A DNA stretch of 64,000 bases from Sphagnum compactum. Its lineage: Eukaryota. The number at the start of each line of letters is the position of its first letter. Position 1 is the first letter of the stretch. The DNA lies in the NCBI GenBank assembly GCA_965153455.1, contig OZ234493.1, forward strand, positions 19,520,213-19,584,212, given 5' to 3'. Shown piece after piece: positions 2,177 to 61,749 of this stretch. Under the pieces are notes generated by a model. The model saw nothing but the letters and a program-made list of their open reading frames with translations, searched no databases and was not told the origin of the DNA. The translations under genes were made by a program, and so were the position numbers.

Positions 2177-5100
2177 ATGCAGGTGCAATGGTGTCTGGTT
2201 TTGTGTTGGGTGGTACTTCTTCTTCTTGTGTTGGCCGTGCATGGAAAGGAAACAATGGAGAAGAAGAGTAGTAGTGGCGCCAGTACAGATGTCACGGAGA
2301 GTCTCGAGGTTTATATGGTGCTTGTGAGTGGTCAGCCTGTGGTTGCTTACAAGGGTGGTCTGTCAGACCTCAATGCCACAGCTCAATTGTTCACCCGGAG
2401 ATGGAAATCTCGCCATCGCACTAGGTATGGCTTGGAAACAAACAAACATGCGTATTGCGCCCAGAAACACATTCGAGAGCTTGTTTCTCCAAGTTTTGGT
2501 TTTGGGTTTTGGGTTTTTTTTGTTTCATCAGCTTCTGATCTGGTGATCACCTGGTGGATCCACTGCCCGTTCATTCATTCCTTCATTCATTCGTGGTGAA
2601 GAAGAAGTTACTGTTGTCTTTGGCTTGACTACAAACTGGGGTTTTGTTTGTGGCTGAATTTGAGCTCATGAGCTCTGGAAAGAATCATCCAATGAGCATT
2701 TGAGCCAGGGATGGCTTTTTCCCAAGTCCTTGGATCTGGGCAGAATATCCCAAATTTAGTAACCAGCAGTCTAAGATCTCACAGAATCCTCACCCAATCC
2801 TCATGCCCATTCATACCCATTGTCTTTGTGGAATCCTCACCTAATCCTCATACCCATCCATACCCATTCCTAGTTCTCATTGTCATTGTGAATATGCCAG
2901 GAGACACCAACAGATTCTTTGGCTTTTTCTGTTTGTTTGGAAACTCTCTAAGCTCTGAGAGTTGGGGTTTCTTGTGGCAGAGGCTCCAATGCTAGAGACT
3001 ACTCGGTGAAGAAGTACAGAGCTTACCTGACAAAGAAGCAGGACGAGCTTCTTGAGAGCTTCTTCAAAACCCACCGTCGCCCCTACACCAAGCTTTACAG
3101 CTATCATCACATTGTGAATGGTTTTGCTGTGGAGCTCACTGCTGAAGAAGTATGCTGCTTAGGTTACATTATTATTCTTATGTACCTAAGTCATTCTTAG
3201 GTCTCTCCATTTTGGCAGAATTTCTTCAGAAACTCTCTGCCATAGCCAAATGACATGAAGAACAGCAATGTGTGTAAGTTACAGTTTTTACTTGCAGCAA
3301 TCAAATCCACTTACATTTTGTGTTGGGTTGGGTTTCTGTGTGTGGCATTGATTGTGATGGGGAAAAACCCTCAAAGGCAGAGCTCCTTGGGAAGGAACCT
3401 GGTGTCATGCAAATTGAGAAGAGCTACAGAGTTCAAAAGGCAACAGTCCACACACCGGAGTATCTTGGACTACCCGAAGGCATATGGGCCCAGGAAGGTG
3501 GATTTCTTCGTGCAGGTGAGGACATTGTGATTGGTTTTGTGGACACTGGAATCGACCCAACACATCCAAGCTTTTCTGCCACAGGACAAAGCCCTTACAG
3601 ACCTCTCCGATCATACCGAGGAAAATGTGAAGTTGCTCCTGAGTTTCCTCTTGGTTCTTGCAATGGGAAGATCATTGGAGCCCAACACTTTGCTGCTGCT
3701 GCATCACAAGATGGCATGTTCAATGCTTCTCTTTATTTTGCCTCCCCCTTGGATGGCGATGGCCACGGAAGGTTTGTCCTCAAGTCCTGGGCATTCTATC
3801 AGATGCAAAGAAAGATGTGTCAAGGCTGGAAAATACTCGATCGCTAGCACATTGTGGACAATAGGCTATCCTTCTGCTGCATAGTACAAAGCACATATGT
3901 GCCTGGTATGTGGAGCGGCTGCTGGTTCTGCCCTTCCGTCAATGTCATGTTGCATTTTCCAGCCATGGACTTGTCGCTGCCAAGAGACAAGAAACCATAA
4001 TGGCATGATTTTGACAATTCTTGACTCAGTGCTTTCTTTGTTGACCCACAAGGTGGTTGGTGGTTGTGGAGCAGCTGAAAACTTCTGCTTCTGTAGCCAT
4101 TTGCAAACAGTACTGCATTTCTTTCATATGTTTGTGTCTCCAGATGTTAGAAGCTGACAATGTTTGATTGTGTTGTTGTCAGTCATACTGCTTCCACAGC
4201 CGCAGGAAACCATGGAGTGCCTGTACTAGTGAATGGTGTATTCTATGGGAATGCCAGTGGTATGGCACCGAGAGCTCGGTAAGACTATATGTTTGTCTGT
4301 TGATTGATCTACCTGTCAACAAACCCCGGCGCATATCTCTTGTCCATGTTTTGATTTTAGGTGGTGCTTCTTCTTGTACTCCATGGTTGCTGGTGTTACA
4401 TAAGATTCTTGAACACAGTTTTAGAGCTCAGTTACTGCCAACATGAAGAGAGATTGATCTGGATTCTAGATCCTGTGGCAGCAGCCCTAATACAGCTCTC
4501 TGTGTAATTTACCTCTAAATTCCTGAAGGAGCTGTTTTGTTTGAAACCAACAGGATTGCCATTTACAAGGCATTGTACCGCATAATCGGAGGTTTTATGC
4601 CAGACGTTGTCGCAGCATGTGATCAGGTAGTTCTCAGAACTTTTGTTGCAGTTGTTGCAGTTTCCCAATCAATCTGGTTTGGGAAATGGGGATTGCTTGA
4701 ATGTATGTGTTCTTTGAAGCTAAAGATTGAGAATCTTTTTCAGTTTCGGACTTTTGAACTTCTTCTACTGGTGGGTGGGTTCTAGAGGGTAACTTGATTG
4801 TTTTTTTTCTTGGGGCCAAGCAGGCGGTTGCTGATGGAGTTGATGTACTTAGTCTCTCACTGGCACCGAATAGCCCACCTCCCGGTTCTATCAGCACCTT
4901 TCTCAACATCTTGGATGTGGCACTTCTGAATGCAGTCAAGGCAAATGTCTTGGTTGTCCAGGCTGCTGGAAATGGGGGTCCTCATGAACAGACTGTTACT
5001 TCTTTCAGTCCTTGGATAATCTCTGTTGGTGCCGGTGTTGATGACAGATCATACCCAAATACGATAGTACTCAGTGACAAGACTGTTCTTCCCGGGACTT

Positions 5101-7211
5101 TGTTGGCACGTAAGTAGTAAACTCTTCAAACAAAGGGAGGTTTTATTCAAGTAATGTGATCTGGTTGCATGGCAATGATACTTATGGTTTTGGTTGTTGT
5201 TCATGTACAATATGCAGCTCCAACAAAAGGCCCAATTTTCTATGACCTCATATTAGCAAATGATGCAGTTCAAGGTGAAGGCAACCCACTCTATTCTCCG
5301 AGTGACTGTCAAGTGCCTTCAATCTTTAACAAACCTTTGGTGCAAGGGAAACTTTTGATCTGTATCTACTCATTCAACTTTGTGTTTGGAGGCGCATCAA
5401 TGCAACAAGTGGTGACGACACTTGAAGCTTTAGGAGCAGCTGGTCTAGTCATGGTGGTGGAGTCAGATTCTGCAGGAAGCATGTTTACTCCCATTCCTCT
5501 GACAATGCCAGGCATTGTCCTTGTAGATGCAATGCATTCTGAGGCAAACACTCTTGTCCTTGATCCTGATCTTGCATCCTAAACCCAAATCACAAACTAG
5601 ATCAATTGGGAGCGAAACCTAAACCTTCCATTAAATACCTAATCCTCTGATTTTGCATGCACTGAATCACATTGTGAGGTTGGTTGAAGAATCCACTTGT
5701 AATTTTGCTGCAAATTGTGGTCTGACAGGCTTTGCTCACATATTATAGTAAAAGAACAGTCAAGGATGCGACTGGCAAGCCTGTTCAATTCGGAGCTCAA
5801 GCTAGAATTGGGGGTGGCCAGATTGCCACTTACAGTGGCCAAGGACAACAAGTGGCACTGTTTTCTTCAAGGGGACCAGACATGAAGGATTTCAATTTCA
5901 ACCAGGCGGATGTCTTAAAGCCTAATATCTTGGCACCCGGATACCTGATATGGGGAGCATGGACTCCTATTGGAATTGATAGCCCTAATTACATAGGTGA
6001 GCTGAACCCATTATTATGCACATCCAGCAAAAAAACTTGAAAAAAAAAAGACTGTAACATGCCCCTTTTTGCTGCATATGTGGTTGCACTGATTTTGGGC
6101 ACACTGATTTGATATGTAAATGGGTTTTAGGCCAGAGATGGGCAATGATGTCAGGGACGAGTATGGCGACACCGCATGTGGCTGGTCTTGCAGCATTACT
6201 GAAAGAGAAGTACCCTCTTTGGAGCCCAGCAGCACTTGCCTCAGCACTGGTAACCACTGCAGACCTAGAGGATTCACGGGGCATACCTCTTCAAGCTCAG
6301 CAAATCTCTGGAAGCTCTGCACCTTCATTGCAACCTGCCACACCTTTTGATATGGGTGGTGGTGCACTTAACATAAATGCTGCTGCCAATCCGGGTATTA
6401 TCTTTGATGCAGGTCAGTAATAATTCTTTGTTTCTCTCTGCTTTTACAAATGAAATTTGCACAATTGTGAGCATCGTCTTTTTTTTTGGGTGAATTTCCA
6501 GTGTGACTCATACAAAGGATTTTTGTGAAAAAAATGTGCCAAAGTCACTAGATTTCGAGGAATGTTTTTTTTCCCATTTTAAGACAATTGGTTCCAGTAG
6601 ATTGCCAAAGTATAGCACGATTCTTAAAATTTTCTACTTTCCTCTCTGACATGTATCCAAATTTGGCTAATTCCTCTTTTGGATGACCACAAAATTGAAA
6701 ACCCTAAACCTTAAATTCTTGGAGCTCAAAACCATCCAGTGCTGGCTGATCTAATTCAGATTGCTTGGGTAAAATTATGTTGGGAACAGGAGAAGCTGAT
6801 TATGTTGCATTTCTATGCTCTGCGGAGGGGGCAACTCGTGAGCAAATCTTTGCATCAACAGGTGGCATGTGCCCAAGTCTACTGGGACGATCCACAGATC
6901 TCAACACTCCATCGATCACTCTTGCCTGTCTGAATGGCACCCAGATTCTCTTCAGGACAGTCACAAATGTTGCCAACAACATTGAAACTTACACAATTAC
7001 TTGGACTAGTCCAGCCGACGTTGCAGTTGCCATTGCTCCTGTGACCTTCACTGTTGGTGGTGCTGGTGAACAACAGTCTCAACAGATCACATTCACTTTG
7101 CGAGCTACTGGCGTTTCAACTGTCTCTTCTTTCGGACGTGTTACATTTGTTGGGAATTTAGGTCATCAAATACACATTCCAATCTCTGTTACAAATAAGA
7201 ATCTGGAATAA
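2177..7211 (+). CDS. Subtilisin-like serine protease (S8A, SBT2.5/SBT2.6-like), 10 exons, ~854 aa, intact
   Basis: Exons joined by hand with consistent phase: 2177-2424, 2981-3149, 3377-3771, 4183-4278, 4554-4626, 4824-5109, 5218-5543, 5729-5996, 6131-6412, 6790-7211 (2565 nt, ends TAA). Signal peptide (WCLVLCWVVLLLLVLAVHG) and I9 propeptide (KLYSYHHIVNGFAV...TVHTPEYLGL). Catalytic triad GFVDTGIDP / DGHGSHTAS / SGTSMATPH, oxyanion AAGN, PA-like insert, C-terminal Fn3-like region (DLNTPSI...RTVTNV). Alternative in-frame ATG at 2129. Confidence 0.93.
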
Positions 7212-7299
7212 AATATGATTTTCTTCTTTTGATATGAAAAATCAAACCCAGAAATTAGTCAGTCTCATTTTGGGGTTTTTACTGAGAATCTTTTTCTCC

Positions 7300-7506
7300 A
7301 TTTTCTGATGTAGTGGTGATCATCCACAAGAAGAATTAGCCAAATGTGGCTACATGTCAGAGATGAAAGTAGATCATTTAAAGAGCCCTACTTTATTTCG
7401 GTGAATTGCTGGAACGTATTGTCTAAATATGGCAATTTCAGAAAAAAAAATCTTTGAAATGTGGCAGACTCCAGCAGATTTTTTTCACAAAAATCCTTTG
7501 TATGAA
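7300..7506. repeat. Copy of a dispersed ~200-300 bp repeat family marked by the palindrome TAGCCAAATTTGGCTA
   Basis: Related copies in both orientations at ~470-770, 1320-1500, 6490-6690, 21770-22000, 31430-31790, 33130-33340, 34270-34430 and 55490-55611 + 58286-58370. Confidence 0.8.
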
Positions 7507-7978
7507 AGAATGGAGGTAACTTTTTCATTCATCCTCTCTAATGTAGTAACCTGCGGTTTACCAAGGGTTCCCAGATTTTAGGGTTTGAGTTTAGGAAAAC
7601 TGGGTTGCCATAGAATGTATGATGTTGGTATACAAGTCATGCGAGGTCAGGACTTGTTTGAGTCCGATATTAACATGTTCATATTGAAGGCAAAATCAAA
7701 TTCAGGTCACACCATTCATGTGAAGGTCAGAAAATAAATGTTCAAAGTTTGCAGAAATCAGTTCGCTAGGAAACAAGAGCAACATCTGTTGCCAAGCCTG
7801 TTATTTGCTAGGGCACTGTATTCTGATATATTCACACAAGCAGTGATTGTTTAAATCCTTCATCTTGCCTGGCCCACAGCAAATGGCCAGCAGCGCAGAA
7901 TACAGTCTCCTCGAGCAAGCACTGCCTTTCTTTTCAATTTGGGAACGGTTCCAAATCACAATTTCGAGCAACACATTA

Positions 7979-10900
7979 TTAATCTATGCACGACTGACGG
8001 AGCAAAGCTTTGACCTTTTCCTCTTTGCAGTGTGCCCGCAGCTTGCGCAAACTCAAGTCTTTGACACCTTTGTGCCCAGGATTCTCCTTATCTGAGCACC
8101 TGAGAGGTGTCTCCTTGCTTTTAGGCAGTCTTACATTCAAAGGAATGTCCTTTAAAACACCAGGATTTTGCTGCATCCATAGAAGACATACCATTTTCAT
8201 TAAGTGTTTGGAAAAAGGAAAAGACTATGAGAAAACACTCAAGAGTGCAAAGTGCTTTGGATATGTGATGCTAGATGTGATGATGATTTTGACCATGCTT
8301 CTCACCTTTTTCCTCTCCTTGCAATGAGCATGTGGTTTACGCAAGGTTGTGTCCTCCAGATCCTTGTGTCTAGAGTTGTGCTTGTGTACTAATTGTCCAG
8401 CTTCCAAAGCAGCTCCAAGGATTTGTCTCTCCTTTCTACTGGTGGAATCTAAAACCAGCATCTCCCCACCAACAGACTGTTTCAGTTCATTAGATGTCTC
8501 ATTCCTGGCATTTGCCACCTCAGATTGACTAGAGTCTCCAGGAATCTTTGTGTGTGCAGCACTCTCTGCCTTCCATTCTGCATACTTGGACAGAATCCCA
8601 GTGGCCTTTGCTATAGTTGCATCAAGTTGTAGCTGGATCCTTGACAAAGGACTAATTTCTGCAGGAGCAGTCAGAACCTGGATGGGCACAGAAACCATCT
8701 CCAATGCATTGAGTGTTGAAGATGTCACTGAAGAGCTCTCCATCTGTGCCAGACCCAGAATGTCTGGTTCTCTGGCACTTTCATGATCCATGCCAGCACT
8801 CCCATTGCTGTTTCTCATGCCCAATAACTCCGTATGTAAGGCAACATTACTGACAGCATGTTCTGGATCTGGTTTCATGCTCTTCATTTCTACTAAATCT
8901 TGCAATATTTCTTTGGCTGCTTCTTCACCCACACAACCAGGTTTTGCATCCAAAGTAGCATTTTGAGCATCAAACACTACAGGCAGTACTGTCTCTGTCT
9001 GTAACAGCGCCACAGGATCCACCATTGGCACACTGTCACTTGTTTGTTTGCCAAGCAGGTCCTCAAATGTATCAAAAGCACTTTCCAGATCCAATTCTTC
9101 TGGTAATACCCCTGGTAATACTCTCTCCATCTGCAACAGCAGTCCTTGAGCATCTCCATGATCCAACTTTATTTCACTGTCATCTGGTTTTCTGCTGATA
9201 TCCTCCATGACGTCCAAGGCATCAGCTGTCAAAGACATCTCCAAAACCTCCATCTGCGGCAGATCATGAATGTAGTAATCCATCTCTGTCTTCCATTTGC
9301 TGTCTCTAATACCCAGCAGCTCCTCATGTAGTGCAGTATTGGTGACAACAAGTTCTGCAGCTGGATTCAAGCTCTCCACTTGCTGCAGTGAACCCTGCAC
9401 AACTTTGTCAGCCTCTTCACCACCAGCAGATCCACGTTTTGCATCTTCAAACTGGGTTGTTGGGCTTGCAGTTTTGACATCAAATTCTTGTGGAACACTT
9501 GTCTCCATCTTCAATTGCTGTTGAGTTTCATCAAGCTCCAACTTCAATGGCTCCTCACATTGTGAAGCAGTCTGAGTGATAGATTGTGTAGAGGAGGATA
9601 TGCTTCCTACCTGCAATCGCCCACCACCAAGAAGCTCCTTGTACACATCAAGATTCTCAACTTCCAGTCTCATGGGTGATGATGAAGGTCTCTCCACTTC
9701 AACCCAATTCTTCTGTTCAGGTTTGATGGCCTTGAACTCAGTTTCTGTGTACAACATGCTCTCCAGTTGCTGCTCCTTGTTCCCTCCTTCCTGTACAGCA
9801 CCATTGGAGGAAAGTAGGGTTGCTGCTGCTGTTACCCCTGCTGATGCTTTCAAGGTTGGAGGCTCTGCACTCGAGACATTGAACCCTGCAGAAATGTCTG
9901 CCAAAGGAGACATTTTCCTGGATTTTGTAGTAGCCTCCTTGGTCATACCACCAATCTCATGGGAGCTCCTCTTTGGTGCCTTGCAGCCAAGCATATTGCT
10001 CCGTGTTACCAACACTGCAGTGCATAGATAGCAGAGTCAGATGGTCACCAAAGAGTAAGGCTTGTCAGGTTCATCCTTTCTTGGTGGGCATGCTCTGCTG
10101 CCTTCCTCAACAGACTCCGAATGTAATCCTCTTCTTCTTCTTCCCAACATGCTATAGCACACTAAGAAAAAGACCGTTCTGCTGTTGAGGCAAGAATCTA
10201 TTTCACATGAGGACATGTGAAGAAACCATCATAGAACAGAGTGCAAAAGGATGAGAGCAACAAAGACATGCACCTTGTTTTTCTGTAGCAAGATTACTAT
10301 GACACTTCTCCTCAGGAATAGAGTAAAGCTGTCTGTCATTTTTCTTCAAACCGCGCCTCAAGGGAGTTGTATTCGGTTGCGGGAATCCCAATACCCTCTC
10401 ACCACTTGAGGAGGAGTGTATAGAACTCGGTTTCTCACTGCTGCGTCTAGCTAATGAAGAAGAAGAGGACGACTTTAAGGTGCCTGAGAGTATCAAGGAC
10501 GCCAATGAAGTCTCGGGAATGTCGGACTTCTTCTCGCCTCTGGCCTTCATGATCGTGGTCTTCGTCACCCCCAGAAACTGTGACTTCGCAGTAGCCTTTC
10601 GCTTTGTGCTCTGTACCTTCTGCAAACCACTCTGGAGGTCGATTGCCATGCAGCATTTCAGGAAAGAAATCATTTGCATCAGCAGGATTCGCATCTATCT
10701 GAAAGCAAATCTGCTAACTTATATCAAAATGATTCTGATATGGTGAAGCTCATGCAGATTTGCAAGCTCCTATAGAAGATCCGCACACAAAAACCCCACA
10801 AAACATCATCTCACAGGAAGAATAGGAAGAAAACCAGACAGAATGAAGCCAACCAGAAGCTAGAGAGGAAGCATCTTTTGCAATCCTAGCCGAGATGCAA

Positions 10901-11071
10901 AAGCTCTTCATGCAGAGGGAGCGCGAGGGGGAGTGGACTTACTGAAGAAGAAGAAGAGAGGCAGGCAGAGAGTGCATCGGCCATGGCGAGGTTAGTTTTG
11001 TTGGCTGGCAAGCTGTGCTGCTTGCACAAAGCCTGCAGCTCCTTCCTGGGCATCTTGTAAAGTTCCAACAT
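7979..11071 (-). CDS. Large acidic, probably disordered protein with N-terminal SAP/HeH-like motif (~790 aa); function unknown
   Basis: Exons 11071-10943 (MLELYKMPRKELQALCKQHSLPANKTNLAMADAL; donor GTAAGT), 10619-10274, 10014-8306 (within the 596-codon ORF) and 8170-8015/7979; phases are consistent. The last exon is uncertain: either a donor at 8014 or the stop at 7979. An extra small exon near 10050-10150 cannot be excluded. Confidence 0.75.
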
Positions 11072-32317: not shown

Positions 32318-33439
32318 TGAATGTAAGGCAATAGTGTTGTTTTTCTAGCGTTGCGACAAGGCACATTACAAATCATAATCGTTTGCCACCCTGCCTAGAA
32401 ACTTTTTTCTTTTTTAGAAAAAAGTTAATACCCGCTGGGTATCACAAAATACAATTGAGAAAAAGAAGCAACGAAGCTTTAAACAAGTGATAATAATAAG
32501 GGCCTATTGAGAGGGCGCCACCAGCACCGAGGTGCCAGACCCACACCCTGGGTTTGGGAACCCTAAACCCTAAACTGTTCCCTAGGGCCTTTACCTATGG
32601 TTTCAAATTGTTATGGGCTTTGTTTATGTGCTTCTAAAACATGAATATGAATATGAGTATTCAACTACAATTTCTTTTGAAGATTTGATATCATTTTTGA
32701 GTTGCAATTTTGAGTTGCCCTCTTTCTCTCACATGTGACCCATTACTTGCTGCAAATTGTAAACAATAATCAATCACTTGTGACATTAATGCAACCCATG
32801 TTCAGAAAATTGTCCTCTGTAATCCTCCCCTGGCCTGGTGGAATAATGGGTTCCAGGTCAGTGAATTTTGAAGGCCAGAACATGGTTGCAGGATTTCAGC
32901 CCCAATGACAAAGTTGTCAATCCATATTATTATTTTTTAGAGTTTGATTGACTTTTTTGGCTCTTTGGTCAGCCACTCCTGAGTCCTTAGCCACAGAAAA
33001 AGCAAGACCAGTTTTTTTTAAAATAATTTTTTAATTTATTTATTTAAAAATTTATTTAAAAATTTAATTTTCATTTCAAAAAATTATAATTTTAAAAATT
33101 CATTTAAATTTTTTTTTTGTGAGGTAGCCACACTGGTGATCAAATTAACCAAATTTGGCTACAGGTCAGAGGGGAAAGTACACAAATTTTGAGAAGAATC
33201 ATGCTATATTTTGGCAACCTGCTTGAACCTTTTTGTGTAAAATATGGTGATTTCAGAAAAAATTTCCCTCGCAATTTGAGGCTTTATTTTCCACAAACAT
33301 CCTTTACATGAGTTGCAATAGACTATTCTTTTTTGGTTGGCAACTGGAGAAAAATTACCCCCAAAAAACACACCGAGCAAGACCACTCACAAATTCCTCC
33401 AAAATGGCCATACTCAATGTTGGTCTCACAATCAGGCCT

Positions 33440-45300: not shown

Positions 45301-47975
45301 ACAAATGGGTGGTATTAGTCCCTTGTTATAGATCATTTAGATTAATGTGACATGTGCTATTGGCCAAGTGCAAACTCTAAAAATTTTGATTTTGATTTTT
45401 TAAAATTTATTTTTTCTAATGATAAAATTATTCAAAATTCAATATCTCCCCCACTGTTGGTCTAAAAATTTACAAAAATACCTTCACAAAATTTTACTCA
45501 TTGAGCACTTTCCAACAATACCAAAAGAGCACCCCCAATTTTCCTTAAAATAATCATTTTTAGTTTTATTGAATTTTCAATAACAAAATTGTTGAACATT
45601 AAGTAGTTCTTGCATTGTAGGTCTAAACATTATGAAACCACCTCCATGCGCCCCTACTTGTTGAAGGCCCCCTACTTGTTGAAGGCTTTGGACAACAGTA
45701 CCAAGAATGCAGGGGGTGATATTGTGATGGAGATCTCAACTTGACAAAGCAAAACAAACAAACCACAAATGGACAGATTGTACAAACCTCCTGTAAGGCC
45801 AATTTGTATTGTAGAATTGTTGCTTTGGCTCCAGACAAAGTATGGGTACATTCCTTTCCTGGCCAAAAAAAAATGTGGGTTTTTTTCTAAACATAAGAAA
45901 TAAGAAGAAACCCTGTATAATTTTTTTAATTAATAAAAAAAATTAAAAGAAAAAGAAATAGAAATAGACATAGTGTCCTTAGACTAAACCAGGGTGTCTA
46001 ACTGAGTTCAGACTCAGATTTAACATTTCCCAGGTTTTATATAGCCTCCAAAATGCCTCACACAAGCAGTTGATGGTAGGATGAAAAAGTGTTTTCCTGT
46101 CCATCCACCCATCCATCCATCCATCCCTCATGATGTCCCCAGCTTTGTTGCAAATCAGTTACGAAACAAAAATTCATACTGTGTAAATTGTTGTTGAGTC
46201 TGCAGGTATGGAAACAATCCCAGGTCTGGTAGTACTTAATAGTAGGTGTTGGTAGATAGGTAGGTAAGTAGGTGTGAGTGGGTAGGTAGATAGGTAGGTA
46301 AGTAGGAGTGGGTGGGTAGGTAGATAGGTATGAGTTCGAATGTAGGAGCCCTTTGTTGCCCTGCGTGTAGAATCGTTAAATATTTTTTTCAGTTATATGA
46401 TGTTGTGTCATTGGCTTGCATCCAAAGAAGGATTTCACATTAATTAATTAATGACATGTTTTTAGAACCTGTCTGATGTAAACCGGCCCCCATCATCGAG
46501 CACCTGTCTGTGACCAAACACTTTGACAAATCTTTCTCAATTCTTCTCCATCTTGAGTGATTTAAAATGTTTTATGAGCGCCTTCTCAAGCTCTACAAAT
46601 CATCTTCGAAATGCAAAGCCAGAAAAGATCAGCCCAAAAATATGTTTTTTTGAATTGCAAAACTGTTTTTTTTTAATCTTTTTGACTCGCTCTACTTTCA
46701 AACCATATAACTTTCTTATTTCTTTATTCATTTAAAATGATTTAAAAGTGTTATAAGAGCACCGCCTGAAGTTTTACAAAATCATCTTTGAACTCTAATA
46801 GCTATAAAGTAACATAAAATGAAAATTTGGAGTGTTCAGGAACCAGCCTTTGTAATGTTTGGTGGTTTGTTTTTTTGAGTTCTTAAGCCCCTTTACTTTG
46901 GGGGCTGTAACTTTCTCATTTCTAATCTGTTTCCAACGATTATTAGTGTATCAAATGTGCCAAGAGGCAGGGTTCAAATTTTGTTTGGACACCAAAAACA
47001 AAGGGAGCCCTCCCCTTGGATCTGGCCTGCCCTGAGCACTTAAGTGTTCGATCACCAACCAGTCTACCCTAGAGTGTAAAAAAAAAAAGTTTTAAACATG
47101 CTACCTAATTGAAGTCAGAGTCCAAATGAGATGTCCAAAAAAAAAACTTTTTTTTGAAAAATTTGGCAAAGTAATGGGATAGAGTATTATTGCCTTTTTA
47201 TTTTTCAGATAAAAATCAGTTATGGAATTTTTGTATTTATGAATTTGGTTGTTGTTGTAGTTTTTTCTGTTGTTTAGAAAGTTTCAAGCTACAGGTGTGG
47301 TAGTAAAACTACAGAAGGAGTTGGTAGGTAGGAGACGCTGGGCAGGTAAGTAGCAGTTGATAGTAGGTAGCTGGAGTAGGTAGGTAGGTAGGTAGGTACC
47401 CTGCCTGCAAACTGTCTGCCTGCCTGATCAGTTATGATTCTGTGTTTGTGAACTTTTGTTGTTGTTGTTTGTGTTGCTGTTGTTGCTGGTGGTGGTGGTG
47501 GTGGCAGACGCGGTTTTCAGGACAAATGGCAGTCACGACGAGCATTGAAGTCCTTACCACCCACCATAACTTACTCATGAATGAGAGTAGTAAAGATTGT
47601 CACTGCATCGTCCCTCCCTCCTTCCCTTCCCTTCCCTTCCCTTCCCTTCCCTCCCTCCGGGTTGATTCCCTCTGCACATCAATCACCATCTCCTCCAGCT
47701 GCTAAGCTTACTAGGCTAGGAGTCCTTCATCACTCACTGCGCAACATAAACGGACAAATGACGTGCGCTTTTATTACAACAAAGTTTCTCATAATAATAA
47801 TAAAAATAATAATGATCTCTAGTCACGCCGTGACTCATGATTCAACGGGTGGCACTGCAACCAAATCAATTAGGCCTTAATTACAGCGTGGTTGCTCCAG
47901 TAGTAGAGACTGTGTTACTGTAGTAGTAATAGTAGTAGTTTTTTCATTTCCATCCATTCCAGCTTCCAGTTCTCG

Positions 47976-47981
47976 TATATA
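47976..47981 (+). promoter_or_regulatory. Probable TATA box of the HRGP gene
   Basis: TATATA about 70 nt upstream of a GTGAGT donor at 48053, which opens a 5'-UTR intron ending TGCAG at 48225. Confidence 0.5.
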
Positions 47982-48247
47982 TTTGTGTTGCATTTCCTCT
48001 TCTCATAAGCAGCAGGAACTCGCAGCCGCAGCGGCAGCAGCTCAGCTTCGAAGTGAGTGTGTTATTACAGCAGCGATCGATCAACAGCTGGGTGGGTTTC
48101 CAGCTCGGTCATTGCAGTAGTACTCGCATACAGCTCGTAGTTGCTGCTAGCTTTTGTCTCTTTAAGCTCCGTTTGTGTCGTAGTTTCTTTTCGGGTCTTT
48201 CTTTGGAGGACGTGGTTTTCTGCAGTTGTCGTCTCAGTTTGCGCAAG

Positions 48248-48898
48248 ATGAAGGGAGGTATGGCCGTGTTTCTGTTGTTTCTGGCTGCGGTCGGCTGTGT
48301 GTCTCTGGGAGCAGAGAGTCGTCCTCTGCTGAGGGGCACGATGAAGGACCTAGGCGCCATTGCGGGGCTACTGCCCAGTTGCTCACCAGAGTATGCCCCA
48401 GCTCCAGAAGACTACTATCCGTCTCCATCTTACAGCTCCCCATCGCCTGCGTATTCATCACCATCTCCGGTTTACTCTTCTCCATCTCCAGTCTACTCTT
48501 CCCCATCACCAGTATACTCTTCCCCATCACCAGTATACTCTCCATCACCCGTCTACTCGTCTCCATCGCCAGTGTACTCATCTCCTTCACCAGTCTACTC
48601 GTCTCCATCACCTGTGTACTCTTCTCCTTCACCAGTCTACTCGTCTCCATCACCCGTGTACTCTTCTCCTTCACCAGTGTACTCTTCTCCTTCACCAGTG
48701 TATTCTTCTCCTTCTCCAGTGTACTCTTCTCCTTCTCCAGTGTACTCTTCTCCTTCACCAGTGTATTCTTCTCCTTCTCCAGTGTACTCTTCTCCTTCAC
48801 CAGTGTATTCGTCTCCTTCCCCAGCGTACTCGTCTCCTTCCCCAGCGTACTCGTCCCCTTCCCCAGTCTACTCTTCTCCTGCACCTGGAGGGTACTAA
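48248..48898 (+). CDS. Secreted extensin-like hydroxyproline-rich glycoprotein, 216 aa, (YSSPSPV)n
   Basis: Signal peptide MKGGMAVFLLFLAAVGCVSLGAES, short spacer with one Cys, then 22 heptads, ending GGY*. Third codon positions vary among repeats while the amino acids are conserved, which identifies this frame as coding. 5'-UTR intron 48053-48225. Confidence 0.9.
   Translation: MKGGMAVFLLFLAAVGCVSLGAESRPLLRGTMKDLGAIAGLLPSCSPEYAPAPEDYYPSPSYSSPSPAYSSPSPVYSSPSPVYSSPSPVYSSPSPVYSPSPVYSSPSPVYSSPSPVYSSPSPVYSSPSPVYSSPSPVYSSPSPVYSSPSPVYSSPSPVYSSPSPVYSSPSPVYSSPSPVYSSPSPVYSSPSPAYSSPSPAYSSPSPVYSSPAPGGY
48431..48889 (+). repeat. Coding 21-bp tandem array, 22 units (one 18-bp unit)
   Basis: 459 nt = 21x21 + 18; consensus TAC TCT TCT CCT TCA CCA GTG. 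Confidence 0.95.
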
Positions 48899-51800
48899 AA
48901 CTGGAGGGAAAATTATGGTCAGTCAGATGCGAGTGTCAAGGTATGTGCAAATGTATGGGAAATGCATTACTTGATGAGACCCTTCTTTTTCTTATTCTGA
49001 AGCTCAATAGTTCAGGTTTAGGAGAGCTCTTGATAGCTGGCGTTAGATGCATGCGCATGCAGGTCATGGTAATTTTGCAAGTAATGGAGCTGATGAGTCC
49101 CAAGGGCAGTGATTCAAGACCACATGAATCCTCAGTGTTTCTGCCAATGTGGGCTTGGTTTGCAGGTAATAAGCCGAGAGCTATGCCGGTGTATCTGGAA
49201 GATGTTGTGAAGAGAAGAACCTCGGTAGGCTGCATTATTTCTGGAGAAAGTGAGATTCTTCCTATGGAGCTGTGACATAGTTCACGAAATTTTCCGAATA
49301 AACAGGGGGACTGGGTGCATAGCTGCTTGATCAATATTCTTGGTGAAAGCTTTGATTGGCGTTTTCAGCTACTTCTCTAGGATGATGGATGGGATGGGTG
49401 GAGAAGCCAACAAAATCTTTATTTCAGTAAATTTTTTTCTCTCTGAGTTTCCATAACATTTTTAGGAATCTGTTATATTTTGACACTTGCCAAGGAAAAC
49501 AGAAAAGCCCAGCTGCTGCATTCATTTGTTTGTTTGATGGTAGTCGTCATTCTTTTGTGTCAAGTTCATTGCAGCAGCCAGTCCATCAAGACTCTTGATT
49601 CAAAAATCAGTGCCCTTACTGGTATTGTTGTGCTTTCATTAACTGGCATCTTGGTTCTGCCTTTAAAATGACATCAATAAGGACGATTAACATGGAAATG
49701 CATTTCAACATGGAAAATCCATCACCATACAGTTCCATCATTTCCACCTATGACCATTCTCCAGATTGTGTCATTTTCTAACGATATATTACATGAAATA
49801 AATCTTCCTGTGATGATCATACACTTATAATGTGTCTGTTGAAAATGGTTTTGAAAAAAATGGCGTTCACTATGCCACCCAAGACCTTAAGGTCGTGCAT
49901 CAACAGCACACTTGCCCCACATTATGTTGGGTGAGTTGCCTAGCTCCCCTTAAAAAGCATGTGTGGGCACACCACTGAATGCATGAATATCATTCTATAG
50001 TACATGTACAATAACTGGAGATTTCTCTCTTCACACTGTTGCTTGTTGCTAGTCTACTTAGTCAATTCATATCAAAGTCCTGAAACTTCTTCCTCTGCCA
50101 TTCCCAGTAAACAGCATAGTTATTTCTGGTTTTTTCCCCGCTTAGCTTTCGTGTTGTGGTTCTTTCATTCTCGGTTTTGTTTATCCTCAGTAATGACTTG
50201 ACGAAAATGTGTTAACCTTGTTTATGCCTCTTCTTAGGAATGGACATTTCTTACAAGAAAATGTATTTGAGAGTTTGTGAACACCAGCGTTGGGGAAAAA
50301 CAAATTAACGGATTTGTGGCACTGGCTTGTCCAACAAATTCTCACTTTTCAGAGTAAATGTCCAACAAAATTTTGATAATGTCCAACTTATCTTCCAAAT
50401 TGTGTAATGTTCAATTCCTTCTTATCCCCCTGTTCATCTCTCATGCACGGTTATGAACATGACATTGCACTAATTCTGTGCCATATTCTTATCATATATC
50501 ATTCTTGTAATCTTGCAACACAAATCGTGTGACACTCTACTATGTTTATAACAATCTTGGACATGTTTTGGACATGTGACATGCATCATTTCAAGTTTTA
50601 TCATCATCAAGTTAGAATGCTTGGGTCTTTGTTGGATTATAAAATTGTATTATGTAAGATATCAGAAAAACCTAAACTCATGCATTCACAAATTAGTAAC
50701 ACAACTCTCATTTGTAATGCAATATTCTGATGCAATTCTGACTCAATTCGTGCAAGCCATAGGGCATACACATCCCAAGAGAAGAAATGGACACCAAAAA
50801 AAGAGGGACCAAGAGGAGAATTACTAGAATGATTTTGCTTCCATGAGGGCACAAATGATAAGGGCACCATAACACACATGGCTACTCCAATCTTTAACTC
50901 CACCCTAAACTTACACCACACATTGTACCCCATCATTCAAAATTGTGTGTATGAGAAACATATGCAAGTGGATTGATAGGTGCATTGGATATCCACAAAG
51001 GATTTGCAAAGACAAATGGGAAATAGTGGATTACCTATGAAGGAATGACGTCTACTAATGGGTGATAAGTGAAAGGCACTCATATTTTTAATAATTGAAG
51101 AGGTATCAAATGCATACCACCATGGCAAGTTCTCATTTTCTAGTTCCAATGATGAGTAATTGGAACTCATATAAGGGGGATTTTTTGGAATCCTTCTTAT
51201 AGTTGTCCATAACATTCCAAAGACAATTTTAGAAATAACTACCTCATTTTCAAGCCTAATTACTTCCTTTTTTTTAATAACTACTTCCTTTTCCTATTAA
51301 CTTTCTTAATAATTATTTCCCATTGTTCATAATAATTACCTCACCCTTTTTCCCTATCCAACAACATGGATATGAAAAAACAAATTAACATGTGTCTTTT
51401 CATGTCCATGAAATGCATATTAATTTAAATTAAACTTGACATTGACATAAATAATGACAAATTATTGAAAATCATATGAAAACATCTTTAAAATTAGAAA
51501 GGGTTGATTGTCAATGGTAGTGCACAACAATGTAAAGCTCAAATAATTAACAAACAATTTAGGCAAAGGAAATAACATTTTTAAAATGTATTTGAATACA
51601 AAAGGAAAAAATCACCACCTATAATCAAACACCCCCATTGTTAAATTCAAACACAAATGTTTCAATCAGTTGAAAAAAAGAGTTTATATGGATTCAACTT
51701 AGTTAAATCACTTAACTAAGTTAACCACCACAAAGTGTTGAGGATTTTTTGTTCTTGTCTTCTTCTCCAATTTTTCACTTATTAATGATCGCCCTTTGCA

Positions 51801-53260: not shown

Positions 53261-55604
53261 GTATCTTATAGAAAAAACATGTTCAAGTGTCAAAAAGGTT
53301 GTTTGAACAGAAATGACATGACAATTTTTCAATTGTCATCAAATTGACATCACATCAATTTTTTTGTCACAACAAACACATAACTAATTTTAACCACAAT
53401 TTATGGTGGTATTTTTTGAATTTTTTCAATTGAAAAGAATATAGGGTAATTCACATTTTAAATCTAAGTGGAAAATACACTTTACAAGTGAATTTTTTTT
53501 ATATATAACATGCAATAGGAAAAAAAAAATTGCATGAAAATGTTAGAAATTAAATTAAGTTTAAGTTTTACTTGTTATTGTAACATTTTTACATCTGATG
53601 TTAATTTTTGGAAGTAAATAATACTTTAAGAATATATTAATTCATTTGCTTTATGATTGCACGTAAATGTGTTAAGGTCACATATAAATATTATGATTTT
53701 TAAAATTCTAGTTATATGTAAACATGCTACAATCTCATTTATAAAATTAAAAAAAAATCATTTCTTACAATTGCATATAAGAATTGTTTTAAAGAAAAAC
53801 ATTATGGTTGCATATGAAAGTAAATAATCTTAACATTGCACATAGAAAATAAGTTTATTACCTCATTATATTTGAAGTCACATGAAAAAATGTTAACATT
53901 GCATGTAAGAAATATATTTTTTGATTTAACTTTTATAGTTCATATAGAATTGTGACAATCACACATAGAAAACAAACTAATTCATTTTATTGATGATTGT
54001 ATGTAAAAATGTTTTAATCACATATATTGTAATCACAATCACTTGTATGGGTTCTTTCCCTCATTTTTAGTTTGGGTTTGGCCAAGTTTGGTTGCATGAT
54101 GTACACTTATGGACATTTGTATGAGAACAAGGTTTTTTGGGTTTTCTGAAGGTGTTAAGGGTGTTATCAAGCATAATTTTTTTGGCCACATGTATTATGC
54201 TAAGTGGTTGCTTGTATGATTTTTTAAAAACTATTTTAGACACCCATTGTTTAATCATATGTATTATGGTTATGGTTGATTGTATAAAAATAATTATTTA
54301 AAAAATTTCAACAATTGTAGTTTCAGTGGCTTGTTAAAATGTTTATTTCATTTTATTTTCTTTACAGTCATGTGTTGTTTAATTCATTCAAGTTTAAATT
54401 ATATTTTTCAATATTTTGTAAAATGACCAACAAATAAGAAGTAAAATAAAGGAAAACAACATGGGGTGTAATATATTTATACAACAATGATCATTCAAGA
54501 AATTTTACAAATTAAAATTTAGTTGGTCTACCTTTTGTAAGATGAATCATCATTTATGCACAAATATTGCTCATCTTTCTAAACTCAAAGAACATGTGCA
54601 TCCAAATTTTCAATGATGTCATGGCATATTTTGCATAAAGTAACATTCACTTAGTCATGGTTATTACTCCACAAATTCTTTCAATGTTTCCATATACCTT
54701 TCAAATTTCAATAAAATACATCTATTAAGTTACATTGTTATTTCACTTCATGTACCAAAACTATCAATAAATGTTCTTGGCTATCAAATAATGAAATTGA
54801 AACTAACATTTGAAGAAGAATTATCACCACAAATATTTCACTTTCCATGATTGCAAATTTCATTCAATCCCCATACTTGGAACAAATCCCAATAGGTACG
54901 GTGTGTTTTGTAGAAGGGGTATTAATTGAAACAAAAAAAATGTTGGCAATCATGTCTAGGATTAGAATATACATGTAGCCAATGAGATGACTAAACATAA
55001 ACCCAAGAGGGTTCATTTTCTTTCCATGGGGGGTGTGATAATGGATTTTTAAAATTCTTCTATTCCCACATGTGTTCGTAATAGCACTTCAGTTTATCCC
55101 ATATTCTTTGTCCAAAGTTTTCCCCTTTTCACTTATATAGGTGAGAGGCATTCCATCCTCACATCAAAATAGTTATTTTGGTGAGCTTTCCAAGTTTATT
55201 TATTTATTTATAATGGTGGGCCAATCAAAATGGCCCGTTGCAAAAAAAAAACAAAACAAAATCAAATCAAATAATAAAACAAAAGTTGGGGAGGCAACCC
55301 ATCCAATGAATAGGAGAGGAGAGATGAATAGATGAGTCATGCCAAATTATATTAAATTGATTCCCTCGCCCCTTGTGTCATAAACCCCCAAATCGAAAGA
55401 AACAAATGGCATCAAATGATATTGTTAAATTCATGTGATTTCAATCTTGAAAAACAACCGTCCTCAAGTTGAGTGAATGGTGCAAAATAATCACATTGTC
55501 AATTTCCATAAGAAGAATCAACCAAATTTTGCTATGGTTAAAGATAAAATAAAAAATATTTAAGAATTACATTATATTTGGGCAACCTATTGGAAGTTAT
55601 TGTT

Positions 55605-56228
55605 CTAAATACTAGTAGGTAACCCGTGGCTACGCCACTCCAGCCACCCCGAACGCTCCATAAATATTGATGATGACTCCAGAAATATTTCCCAATCATT
55701 TTTTAAATGATTAAAATTCTTGTTTGTTGCCTTTAGAGAACCCTTTGTAATGAAATACACCATGCCCACATCAATTTTATCATAGAACCGATCCACAACA
55801 TTGTTGAAGCAAGTAGCTCGAATCTCTCCATTATCTGCATCCAAAAGGTCAAAGGAGAAAACCTTGCCATCTCCCCTGGCGTTGTGGAAACGGCGGACAT
55901 CACTCTTGGCAGTCACTCTTACTTTGATAGTCCACCGACCCTGGTATGGATTCAAGGCGGCAATTGGGACAATTCTGGCAGGTGCTTCATTCTTGGCAAT
56001 GGGTCCTCTATTTGAATAAACAGGGGCAGGTTGGTAGGGAGGAGCAACACTGGGTCTTCCATATGTGTTTTGTTGCTGAACTTGCTGATTATTAACCCCA
56101 CCTACTTCACCCATAGCTAGCCTCTGAAAGTCACCAGAGTTAGTCTGAGGCACAACACTCCCTCCTCCATGTCCATCAGAGTAACTTCCATTATTGGATT
56201 GACCTACACCTCCTTTAATATTCATGTC
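55605..56228 (-). pseudogene. RPA1: Helitron-captured fragment of Replication protein A 70-kDa subunit (linker + DBD-A OB fold); ORF open
   Basis: PPYQPAPVYSNRGPIAKNEAPARIVPIAALNPYQGRWTIKVRVTAKSDVRRFHNARGDGKVFSFDLLD..GEIRATCFN...KGSLK...FNHLKNDWEIFLE. Homology stops at ~55668. No DBD-F, B or C is present. Acceptor CAG at 56231-56229. Confidence 0.88.
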
Positions 56229-56684
56229 CTGTATGTTTTTTGTGATAAACCAAGATAGGACATCTGATTGATACCCTTTGTTTCTTGTATGTATTTGTGA
56301 TCAAATTATGTTTTCATTGATCTTGATAAACCAAGATAGCTTGAAAAAAAGAAAGTCATAAGTTAAAATTTCCTTCCCTTCTCCCTCCCTTCATAAAGAA
56401 CATACCAGGAAATCTTGATGTCCTAGCTTCATACAATTTCAACAGCTTCATGTTATCATACAATTGTTGCAAGAAATGCATTACTTTGTCAGGGAGAGAG
56501 GCTTGAGACAACAAGTGTCTAGGTTGAGCATTCAGGTCAATCATGCCTGATACAGGCTGGTTGTTCTCGAGCAAACCCACTCAAATGGACTAAACACTGA
56601 AACCTGCCATCCTTTGGTGATACATCCCACTACTGTCCTTGCATGCATAAGGTTTACTTTGGCAGGCTGAGTTTCCTGCATGAC

Positions 56685-56847
56685 ACTTCCAATGCAAAGC
56701 TGCTAGAGAAAGCTGCACTAAAAAGAAATGATGACAGATCACAGACATGTGTTTATTGCTTAGGAACTTCCAATGCAAAGCTGCTAGAGAAAGCTGCACT
56801 AAAAAGAAATGATGACAGATCACAGACATGTGTTTATTGCTTAGGAA
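56685..56847. repeat. Exact 81-bp tandem duplication inside the Helitron
   Basis: acttccaatgcaaagc...tgcttagga is repeated at 56685 and 56766. Confidence 0.95.
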
Positions 56848-57971
56848 AGGTTGGTTCTACCAGTCAATTCCTGGAAGCAGAAAGTACAGCATCATGAATG
56901 CTCTTGGACATGTAGACAATGACACACTATGTAGTGGAGCAACGATGCCAATGCACATCCATTTTCAAGTGTTTCTCAGGTCCTTTGCAATTTGCAGAAT
57001 ACCTGTCTCCAGTGCCATATTGGTTCTTTCTGTTGCATCATTGACAATATAAACTTTTGGTGCTAAGTTTTCAAAATACCTGATAATATCCATTTTGCAA
57101 CCTAATTCCAGCACTTGGTGATTTGCAGACCTTAGGAGCACACAATCAAACAAATGAGACAAACAAACCCTAACTCAAGTCTTTACCCACTGATAAGTGG
57201 AGTATGGAGGGTACTTGTGTCCACTTCATCAGCAAACTTGGTGAAAATAGATACAAACTATCAGTCCCAAGAATCTAACATATGAGATTTTCTGCTGTCC
57301 TTCCTACAGGTCCATACTGCAAGGAAAGCTGCTGAGTACCTGCATATTCCAACACTCACCTGGCATGGGTGAAGCAGGAAGGAGGGCCTTGCACGTAATG
57401 AGTCACATTCAGAAATCCCTGTACCCTGTGCAAGAAAAAAAGAATCAAAGCAATAATGGCTCTGACTGACCTGCAAACCTGCACAGGATCAAATGGTATC
57501 AATGTGTTACATTCTACTCTCACACCTAAATGACTAACACAGGGAAGATGGACACTGATAGTGGCAAATTAAGTAACAGAGGATCATCCACATTGCAATC
57601 TTAGGTGCTCTCCACTCCACCTGCAGCAGATGTTATTGGGCCTGCAATCTTGACATACATAGAGAGGAAGAGAGCAAGGGACTGACGTTAACAAATATAG
57701 CCGCATTCAATAGAGATTTACCCATTTTCTGCCCATGTTCACCTGTACACAAACAATTTGTTGGCTCTTATAGCTCCAATTCCAAAACATTTCAAGTTGC
57801 TGGCCTATGATTTTTTATGAATTTTTTTGATGAGGATTGTTGAATTTTGTTATGAATTCATTGCAGCTCTTACTTTGATTCTTACATTCTGGAGGTCAGC
57901 AAATCTCTTAAATGTGCCATTGGCATCTAAAGTTATGAATTGAAAGACAGAGAGACACAGACACAGACACA

Positions 57972-58102
57972 CAGAGAGAAATACAAAAGGGATTTGAATG
58001 TGGTCTCATTGAACATTGCTCTGCTCTTATCTGAATGCATCTTCTTCAGAGAGAAATACAAAAGGGATTTGAATGTGGTCTCATTGAACATTGCTCTGCT
58101 CT
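57972..58102. repeat. 56-bp direct repeat (75-bp period) inside the Helitron
   Basis: cagagagaaatacaaaaggg...ttgctctgctct at 57972 and 58047. Confidence 0.95.
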
Positions 58103-59779
58103 GATGTGAAGCATATGTCTGTCTCTTGGAGCTTTTTCAGAGATCAGAGACATCATGGCAATTTCTAAGAATTTGCTTTTCAAAGATGTTTCCCAACTGC
58201 CCTAACTGCCGCCGGTTCCGGCGTAATGTTAAAACGCAGAACGTCTTGTGACACACAGACACCACTGTAGCTTTTATATATAGGATGGCAATTAAAAAAA
58301 AATTCTTAAAATATGGCAACCTTGGCACATTTTTTTCACAAAATTCCTTGCATGAATCACATTGGATTTTTTAAAAGTCAATTGTCAAAAAAAAAAAAAA
58401 ACATTAGCACAAAATGTTAAACATTTTAATGGACTTAAGAGCTTGTAAAAACACCTTTCATTCCTTTTTTTGCAAAATGATAAGACTTTTCTTATACACT
58501 AATTTACTTTTTGCAAGAATTTATAATGTTTATTTACTTGTTAATATGTGGGCACATAGGCCAATTTGTAAGAATGAAACACAAATGGAAAATAAGACCT
58601 AAAATTTGAATTCTTGTCATAATGATTAGAACCAAGTTGATGGAAAGTGATATTTTTGTGACATGAATAGCAACAAGCAACTTTAACATTAAACATCATC
58701 ATCATTCTAAGCATGTTTCAAAATTTCCTCCAAAATCAATAAAATCAAGTCCAAAAAGCTTTAGGATTTAACATTCAAAATGTTAAATGTTAAATCCTAT
58801 TTTTTAGATTTGTATTTAATAGGTGAGATGTGCTTTGGAGATCTTCACTTTTTATAAAGAGCTCCAACTATCCATTGGAAATAGTTTCCAATTGTTTAGA
58901 AGGAAATTTGAAAGGGAAATAGATACTATTTGGTTGAATTAGTTTTTTGCCCTTATATTCAAACTTGGGCTCTGTGTTGCTTCACTCTACCAATGATGAT
59001 GAATTGTTTTAAAAAAGGATATAGATGTCATATTAATTCATATTTTGGGAAGGGAAAGATGTATATGTTATTTATGGAGTTTCATAAATGTGTTCGTATT
59101 TGTGTCAAAACATATTGAAATTTTTTGGGATCTCCAAATGCAATGTTTGTTGCATATGTTATTGTGAAAACACCACATGATGAGTTGTCTATTTGCTACA
59201 TTACATTTGCATATGTGTATAACAAGTTATTCACATTTATAAGTTTGCATAATAATTGGATTGTGTTGCTAGGCAATTTTTTCGTCATTAGCATATGTGA
59301 ATTGTATATTGTACAATGTAAATTAGGAGGTGACATGTGGATTTTTATTAATATCCAATGATAGTTGTTTATGAATATGTGTTGAAGACATTTTTTGACA
59401 CATGTTGATTTTTTTCCTATGATTGCATATGTATGTTATTCATATCCTAATGATTGTAATTTTTCAACATATAATATTTGCATAACACTTCCTAAATGTT
59501 GGTCACTTAGCCATCCGTCACATTGCCTTCACTCTTGAAAGTTGGCTAAAACCTTAAAAACCACAAAATTTTCATGGTTATTTTTTTTTCTTAAAAAACA
59601 CTTGCCAACTTGTAAAAAATCACAAAAAAAAAGACACCTGTTACATATAAGAAATAAACTTTTAATTGATTTTTACAATTACACCTAAAATGTTATAATC
59701 ACATGTAAATAATTACTTTATCAATTCATTTTGTGTTAAAGTATTATGGTGGGATGTAAGAAATAAAGTTTACAATTTA

Positions 59780-60960: not shown

Positions 60961-61749
60961 TATGTCATGAATGGCATCTAGCATGACACAAGTGGGGAAA
61001 AAATTTCATTTTTTAACTTTAGGTTGCCACATGGCAACTCATAAACAATCAACAAAAAAATGATTTGATTAAATTTCCATGCGGTAACACATAATAATTA
61101 AGCAAAAAAAAATTGATGCTCTAGGCCTAGGTTGCCACATGTAAATGTAGTTATTAACATTTAGGTCTAGGCTACTTAGGCCAAGCACATGGCAACAAGC
61201 ACTAAAACCCTAAGTTGAAAGAAACAAATGGTATCAAATATAAGACTATATTTTGACAACTTATGAAACTTGTTATCTAAATATCGTGTTTTAAAAAAAA
61301 CAAAATCAACAAACTATGGCAACTTTAACACAAATTTTCAAAGAAATTCTTATATGAGTCACATTATAATTTTTTGTTGCCAAATGCCAAAAAAATATTG
61401 TCATAAAACCTTGTTGGCATCTTAATGGACTTATAAGCTTATAGAAATACCTTTCATTCTTATTTATGCAAAGTGAAAATAGTTGCATTGTATACCAATT
61501 AACCTTTGGCATGAAATTTTAATGTTCATTCAAACCTAAATTAATCATTATGAATTCACATTTATTGTATTTTATAAATATCATTCACTTCACCTAATAA
61601 AATAAATATGCAAGTTCCAACTATCTTGAAGTAAACTTTGGAATAAACCAACTACTATTTTAATGGTTTAATTAATCTTTTGCCCTTATACCCAATCTTA
61701 ACAAATGATTTGCAACAATTTGCAATTTGTGCACAAATTATCTTGCTCC

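Follow-up and report, generated by a model that had tools for sequence, protein, structure and literature searches.

Evidence for a complete, non-autonomous Helitron carrying fragments of two host genes inside an older repeat of Sphagnum compactum

The window analysed here is a stretch of 64,000 nucleotides from the moss Sphagnum compactum (assembly GCA_965153455.1, contig OZ234493.1, positions 19,520,213 to 19,584,212 of the forward strand), and all coordinates below are those of the window. At 55612-58285, a block of 2674 bp with a GC content of 41.0% (window, 36.0%) divides an old dispersed repeat, the left half of which lies at 55488-55611 (+) and the right half at 58286-58370 (+). An earlier, sequence-only reading had proposed that the block is a young, cargo-bearing, non-autonomous Helitron; following it up, we regard the block as very probably a complete non-autonomous canonical Helitron (HLE1 type) on the minus strand, seated in an older repeat and holding fragments of two host genes whose best protein matches are from Sphagnum. 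In minus-strand sense, the first bases of the element, from 58285, are TCCTATATAT / TCCTATATATAAAAG, preceded by an A that is the complement of the T at 58286, and its last bases, up to 55612, are CTAG, followed by a T that is the complement of the A at 55611. The 5' terminus (58250-58285, minus strand; A, then TCCTATATATAAAAGCTACAGTGGTGTCTGTGTG) has ∼31-36 nt in common with the family members described below, and the 3' terminus (55612-55658, minus strand) has 47 nt. The order of letters at the 3' end is GTGGCT-GGAGTGGCGT-AGCCAC-GGGTTACCTA-CTAG, then T. The sub-terminal hairpin (55626-55647, minus strand) can be drawn from the arms GTGGCT (55642-55647) and AGCCAC (55626-55631) with a 6-bp stem and a 10-nt loop, or more tightly as GTGGC-GTA-GCCAC (55626-55638) with a 5-bp stem and a 3-nt loop; in either drawing, exactly 10 nt (GGGTTACCTA) separate it from CTAG. 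Within the window, neither 24-nt terminus has a second match at up to three mismatches, and none of the seven inverted pairs found joins the ends of the element as terminal inverted repeats would, pair I3 lying in the flanks.

An empty-site test was made by joining 55300-55611 to 58286-58600, searching the joined flanks against the window by BLAST and then aligning them with MAFFT. Four BLAST alignments cross the junction (7323-7506, 72.6% identity; 6683-6497 on the minus strand, 74.3%; 61247-61530, 69.6%; and 33143-33264, 69.7%), and a fifth, to 768-643, stops exactly at it. In the MAFFT alignment all five repeat copies, which are the unbroken paralogous copy at 7323-7506 (+) and those at 6497-6683 (-), 61247-61530 (+), 33143-33264 (+) and 643-768 (-), run continuously through CTAAATA/TGGCAATT (the slash marks the junction) with no gaps and no duplicated bases. 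The 2674 bp thus entered as one block between A and T, without a target-site duplication (TSD). The placement carries a one-base ambiguity in that the element's last base on the plus strand and the last base of the left flank are both A, so that the cut could shift one position to the left; the drawing that gives the canonical TC...CTAG is the one that fits the family ends elsewhere. The repeat itself is evidently old, with copies 67-74% alike. The sequence-only reading had placed A-TC, the hairpin, the 10-nt spacer and CTAG-T at these coordinates without a TSD, and had held the joined flanks to be collinear with an empty site at ∼7321-7506 in an older repeat; all of this was found as described, with the qualification that the site is a paralogue and not an allele. 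A subtilase gene at 4758-7208 (+), with Peptidase_S8 pieces and with fn3_6 in its last exon, has that exon flanked by two of the repeat copies in inverted orientation, 6497-6683 (-) and 7323-7506 (+).

Moss-associated metagenome contigs of the JGI were scanned for a motif of 24 nt taken from the 3' hairpin region, which yielded 84 exact matches in 83 loci. Because some loci are the same site recovered from several samples, these matches collapse to 63 distinct combinations of end plus flank, of which 35 end in CTAG, 17 in CTCG and 11 in rarer variants (drawn by hand, so that the T following them weighs less). The base after the CTAG and CTCG ends is T in 52 of 52, and the flanks beyond that T are unlike one another. 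Upstream of the family 3' end, a 5' end like that of the window element (TCCTATATATTAAAGCAAACGTGG...) occurs in 12 loci, with A before TC in 11; in the other, L034, the CTAG of another Helitron stands there instead. The prediction that the termini would recur at other A-T junctions was thereby borne out in the metagenome loci. Elements with both ends measure 391-693 bp, 2298 bp (L077) and 5553 bp (L018). Identity to the window element across the 3' 47 nt is 100% in L028, L034 and L048 and, over 46-47 nt, 91-98% in most of the other loci, the lower values being those of L002 and L064 (∼89%) and L074 (85%), with L064 and L074 compared over 53 nt. Judged by these ends, the element is a member of a large family whose copies have ∼35 nt of 5' and ∼47 nt of 3' terminal sequence in common.

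The scan also turned up a sister subfamily with the same hairpin and with CTCG-T, not CTRR-T, at its end, a non-canonical 3' tetranucleotide for a Helitron. Its 17 distinct insertions all have T as the next base and unrelated sequence beyond it (loci L006, L011, L015, L025, L030, L037, L038, L040, L046, L050, L059, L072, L079, L082 and others). Within the family more generally, positions 1-61 of L051 match window positions 56277-56337, an interior stretch between the two cargo pieces described below, over 61 nt at 98%; there, this shared interior is joined to a different stretch and then to the family 3' end, so that members with reshuffled interiors exist.

Sequencing depth shows the same division between ends and interior. 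Summed over contigs, and thus not to be read as a copy number, depth in run X2 is ∼2-5 in the flanks, 69-172 in the interior (one bin, 0) and 1243-1339 in two end bins; in run X8 the corresponding values are ∼39, 387-1007 and 4751-10924. The depth of the end bins is at least 10-fold that of the interior, and the pattern is that of termini common to a far larger family than the interior. Contigs depart into mutually unlike sequence exactly at 58286 (12 in X8 and 10 in X11), and several groups of loose contig ends leave the window sequence at 55650-55658, where subfamilies diverge; the latter positions show how far inward the 3' terminus is shared. The stretch 58112-58255, immediately internal to the 5' end, has the highest depth in X8 (10924, as compared to ∼450 for the interior) and the second highest in X2 (1243, after the 3' end bin), and RNA reads of the opposite strand map at 57824-58255.

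This uneven depth bears on whether the 2674 bp is one element or two or more nested or tandem Helitrons. The stretch 58112-58255, with its depth far above that of the interior, would suit a composite, and head-to-tail pairs do occur in the family: at L034:2390-2440 (minus strand) the CTAG of one element abuts the TC of the next, and a contig of run X11 links a 3' end region to a 5' end (58283 to 55618) via nine other letters. In the window, however, there is no internal family terminus, the 3' and 5' motifs occurring once each; the family loci match only the last 45-53 nt plus the one 61-nt interior piece; by inspection, none of seven internal CTRR-T sites follows a hairpin-like palindrome; and the flanks close exactly around the whole 2674 bp. 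A composite is thus very improbable.

Coding sequence for RepHel, in which an HUH-type Rep is joined to a PIF1-type helicase, occurs in some of the family loci. Of 169 open reading frames (ORFs) of at least 100 aa, 99, from 15 loci with long upstream sequence, were scanned against Pfam; the other 70 belonged to loci duplicating another one (L044, L047, L048, L053, L076, L069) or to short elements (L021, L041, L058, L061), or were a few additional, mostly antisense ORFs. In 7 of the 15 loci, the family 3' end is closely preceded by sense-oriented ORFs with Helitron_like_N and/or PIF1 domains (L007, L018, L023, L028, L032, L064 and L065), with best E-values of 1.4e-59 for Helitron_like_N and 5.2e-68 for the PIF1 helicase, which is accompanied by a Pif1 2B domain. 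One of these loci, L028, is 100% identical to the window element over the last 47 nt. Another, L018, has both family ends 5553 bp apart, and its translation includes FITMTCNP, GMPHAHILL, YLYKYVYKG and a Walker A sequence, GLGSTGKTF, which we take to correspond to Helitron Rep motifs and to motif I of the helicase. Among the hits listed, the closest named RepHel proteins are gene models of Sphagnum magellanicum, at 78% and 87% identity. Neither Pfam searches of five ORFs of the element nor tblastn of four Rep/PIF1 translations (from L007 and L018) against the window detected a Rep or helicase in the element or the window, and the element is therefore non-autonomous, as had been proposed; its RepHel relatives share its 3' end.

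Taken together, all the defining features of a canonical Helitron (HLE1) that can be examined in silico are present: TC and CTRR ends, a hairpin, an A-T target without TSD and without terminal inverted repeats, termini at multiple loci, and RepHel-coding relatives with the same termini. Rolling-circle transposition is the established scheme for Helitrons, and we apply it here on the strength of family membership. RepHel supplied in trans by a coding relative would nick at the 5' TC, peel off the transposon strand by means of its PIF1-type 5'-3' helicase and stop at the hairpin/CTAG signal, after which the single-stranded circle would be pasted into an AT dinucleotide.

Several findings weigh against the reading as a complete Helitron. 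The hairpin is weak: as single-stranded DNA (ssDNA) it folds at -5.2 kcal/mol (z = -0.01), and 99 of 200 shuffled sequences fold as well, so that it counts by its position and not by its stability. The match of the 5' end to the fetched family members is limited to the first ∼31 nt, and nothing in the 83 loci matches the high-copy stretch 58112-58255. Family size is read partly from summed depths, with the caveat given above. All RepHel copies are from metagenome contigs and none from the window's own genome; L018, the one RepHel copy with two ends, has a frame broken by stops and shifts and would therefore be a decayed copy; and an intact autonomous partner was not found among the 15 loci scanned. 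Finally, what serves as an empty site is in each case a paralogue (70-74% identity) and does not represent an allele of the element's locus, and no contig joining 55611 to 58286 was found in the DNA runs X2, X8 and X11, the left flank being hardly covered in X8 and X11. From X2, which may be the window's own source, a contig of 426 nt (55213-55638, no differences) extends 27 nt into the element, short of the 31 nt that the tool requires for bridging. The lack of an empty allele in these three runs is also what would be seen had no transposition taken place and the block, Helitron ends included, been copied in by double-strand-break repair or segmental duplication. Against such copying, the edges of the block coincide to the base with the family termini, between A and T, as in dozens of other insertions, and we consider it extremely improbable; insertion as a Helitron is the account that we retain.

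The age of the insertion is approached through relatives. Compared with collapsed contigs of its relatives, the window copy shows 21 differences in 1704 nt (X2) and 17 in 1913 nt (X8), or ∼1%, which fits a recent origin of this copy. The element also contains a perfect tandem duplication (56685-56846, two copies of 81 nt) and a second one (57972-58110) with 64-nt copies that are 97% alike and 75 nt apart. The low divergence, the perfect 81-nt duplication and a cargo frame still open over 231 codons lend no more than indirect support to the word 'young' in the sequence-only reading. RNA reads cover 15 listed diagnostic sites inside the element and without exception carry the letter of the relatives (e.g., 39 of 39 reads at 56511 and 35 of 35 at 57367), on which ground expression of the window copy was rejected.

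The cargo claimed for the element is present as two gene fragments, both in sense orientation within it. The larger, at 55668-56213 (minus strand), is a fragment captured from a core RPA70 gene of moss, comprising the linker and most of the OB-fold DBD-A, and lies inside the open frame of 231 codons at 55605-56300 (minus strand), which matches the OB fold PF01336 at 6.2e-11. The fragment matches human RPA70 DBD-A (PDB 1jmc) at 4.7e-31 and residues 67-264 of the Sphagnum RPA model P0002 at 85% identity; its homology stops at 55668, inside the OB fold. Its best relatives are Sphagnum proteins (83-93%), with ordinary land-plant RPA70 mostly at ∼70-80%. In a tree of 34 rows picked by hand from 121 segments (87 were left out, and no PHRPA reference, i.e., the RPA of angiosperm Helitrons, was included), the fragment groups with Sphagnum copies (96/81) inside a clade of 13 rows (97/92) that includes RPA70 of the moss Ceratodon. 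Its position within the moss core RPA70 clade indicates capture of a host core RPA70 and, if indirectly, not of a divergent PHRPA. As it stands, the piece is too short for a working ssDNA-binding protein. The smaller fragment is a B-box zinc-finger exon piece at 56485-56574 (minus strand): the frame at 56356-56580 (74 aa) is, over 41% of its length, 97% identical to P0124, a B-box protein named from Sphagnum troendelagicum. After ...SLPDK the two part, the window continuing with GTAATG and P0124 continuing differently, so that an exon piece was captured together with its own apparent intron, from 56484 downward. Four further ORFs of the element have no Pfam match at E ≤ 0.1. Short islands at 57349-57380, 57615-57650 and from 57861 onward (other strand) match spliced polyA RNA that runs into unlike sequence, and are probably more gene pieces.

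At the break of the RPA70 piece, RPA homology extends to 55668 and is followed by ∼9 nt of unassigned filler (55659-55667, minus strand) and then by the 47-nt family terminus. Some contigs part from the window copy at 55667 and go on with RPA sequence that reads, by eye against P0002, as TVEPCFEGDG, the next residues of the RPA model; their depth (108 in X2 and 393 in X8) equals that of the interior. We infer from this continuation at interior depth that multi-copy relatives carry a longer RPA piece, and that the window copy is a shortened derivative in which the break in a longer, multi-copy relative would have been rejoined to the family 3' terminus via the filler. Alternatively, this copy or an immediate ancestor of it may have picked up the short piece from the host gene itself, through template switching or through repair with filler DNA. 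A protein identity to P0002 that was also put at 96%, with P0002 on a zero-length branch of the tree, speaks for direct capture, as do the 83 family loci, all of them without RPA, and the five named RepHel models of Sphagnum in the list of hits, which have no RPA domains. The depth of the RPA-continuing contigs, by contrast, matches that of the interior in both runs (393 vs. 358-451 in X8; 108 vs. 78-105 in X2), which fits one repeated unit longer than the window copy. Direct capture is thus unlikely, while retaining a real chance, and we prefer the shortened derivative.

A wider proposal is that Sphagnum Helitrons acquired a host core RPA70, in a form that keeps the three DNA-binding OB folds but is missing most of the N-terminal domain, and amplified it to tens of copies, of which the window copy would be a truncated offshoot. 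The RPA-continuing contigs at family-level depth speak for it, as does the architecture of two of the Sphagnum models. P0002, which stands for 68 member sequences, has PF01336, PF16900 and PF08646 and lacks PF04057, and P0001 has the OB fold twice. On the other side stand the same absence of RPA from the 83 family loci and from the five RepHel models, and the degenerate look of several RPA copies. We hold this proposal to be doubtful. Were it true, and were the longer copies to encode a working ssDNA-binding protein that aids transposition, it would mean that a bryophyte Helitron gained RPA recently and independently, parallel to the ancient PHRPA of flowering plants. As an observation apart from the element, many Sphagnum RPA70-like models (P0001-P0006) lack the N-terminal PF04057, and several have odd substitutions; they look like decayed copies, or copies borne by transposable elements, that inflate the annotated RPA family. 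Helitron capture may explain some of these truncated models, the status of Helitron cargo having been seen for the window copy only. Elsewhere in the window, long open frames overlap on both strands at 47939-49364, where Pfam gives only low-complexity matches (PXPV repeat; FBF1 below cut-off), a picture that probably reflects coding sequence of a repetitive or proline-rich kind.

As a Helitron, the element is ordinary; Helitrons have already been counted in Sphagnum, and nothing is changed in how they are understood to work. What it offers is a bryophyte Helitron carrying gene fragments that is defined to the base, along with the termini of its family, relatives both short and long, and RepHel partners, and hence a useful seed for curating Helitron families in Sphagnum genomes, for which automatic counts exist. 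Gene capture by Helitrons is best known from maize, and the RPA70 and B-box pieces show that capture and shuffling of host exons and introns operates in mosses too. A full-text literature search found no paper on Helitron gene capture in Sphagnum.

Canonical plant Helitrons were reportedly described by Kapitonov and Jurka in 2001, and non-autonomous carriers of gene fragments are said to be known from maize and Arabidopsis. Like these canonical plant Helitrons, the element has termini in common with RepHel-coding relatives and holds several host gene pieces, exon plus intron, in one orientation; unlike the maize and Arabidopsis carriers, it has a moss as host, its hairpin is short and weak, and a CTCG sister subfamily exists among the fetched loci. 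The presence of RPA70-like sequence near the 3' end recalls the PHRPA of angiosperm Helitrons such as Mothra of rice. In the available part of the report by Roffler et al. (PMC4683698), PHRPA forms a separate clade outside the core RPAs, is confined to monocots and dicots, and was not found in earlier-diverging plants. In contrast to PHRPA, the fragment described here falls in the moss core RPA70 clade (of a tree without PHRPA), shows 75-80% identity to ordinary land-plant RPA70 and consists of one truncated exon.

Within its own genus, the nearest point of reference is Sphagnum magellanicum, in which annotation with HELIANO counted 2762 HLE1 and 555 HLE2 elements in a genome of 36.3% GC, close to the 36.0% of our window, as given in the accessible portion of that survey (PMC11417382). 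That portion contains no description of a family with the termini or cargo of the present element, the only Sphagnum family shown in it being the HLE2 family HelenSM92, with TT/TT sites. The link to S. magellanicum Helitrons is through the coding relatives, the closest RepHel proteins being models of that species at 78-87% identity among the listed hits. With Helentrons (HLE2) the family shares the superfamily of rolling-circle Rep plus helicase; unlike HLE2, for which the same portion of the survey gives a T-T target and short terminal inverted repeats, the element lies between A and T and has no such repeats. It is with the canonical plant HLE1 elements, as characterised there (PMC11417382), that it agrees, in its 5' TC, its 3' CTAG, a hairpin ending ∼10 nt short of the 3' terminus, an A-T insertion site that shows no TSD, and the absence of terminal inverted repeats.

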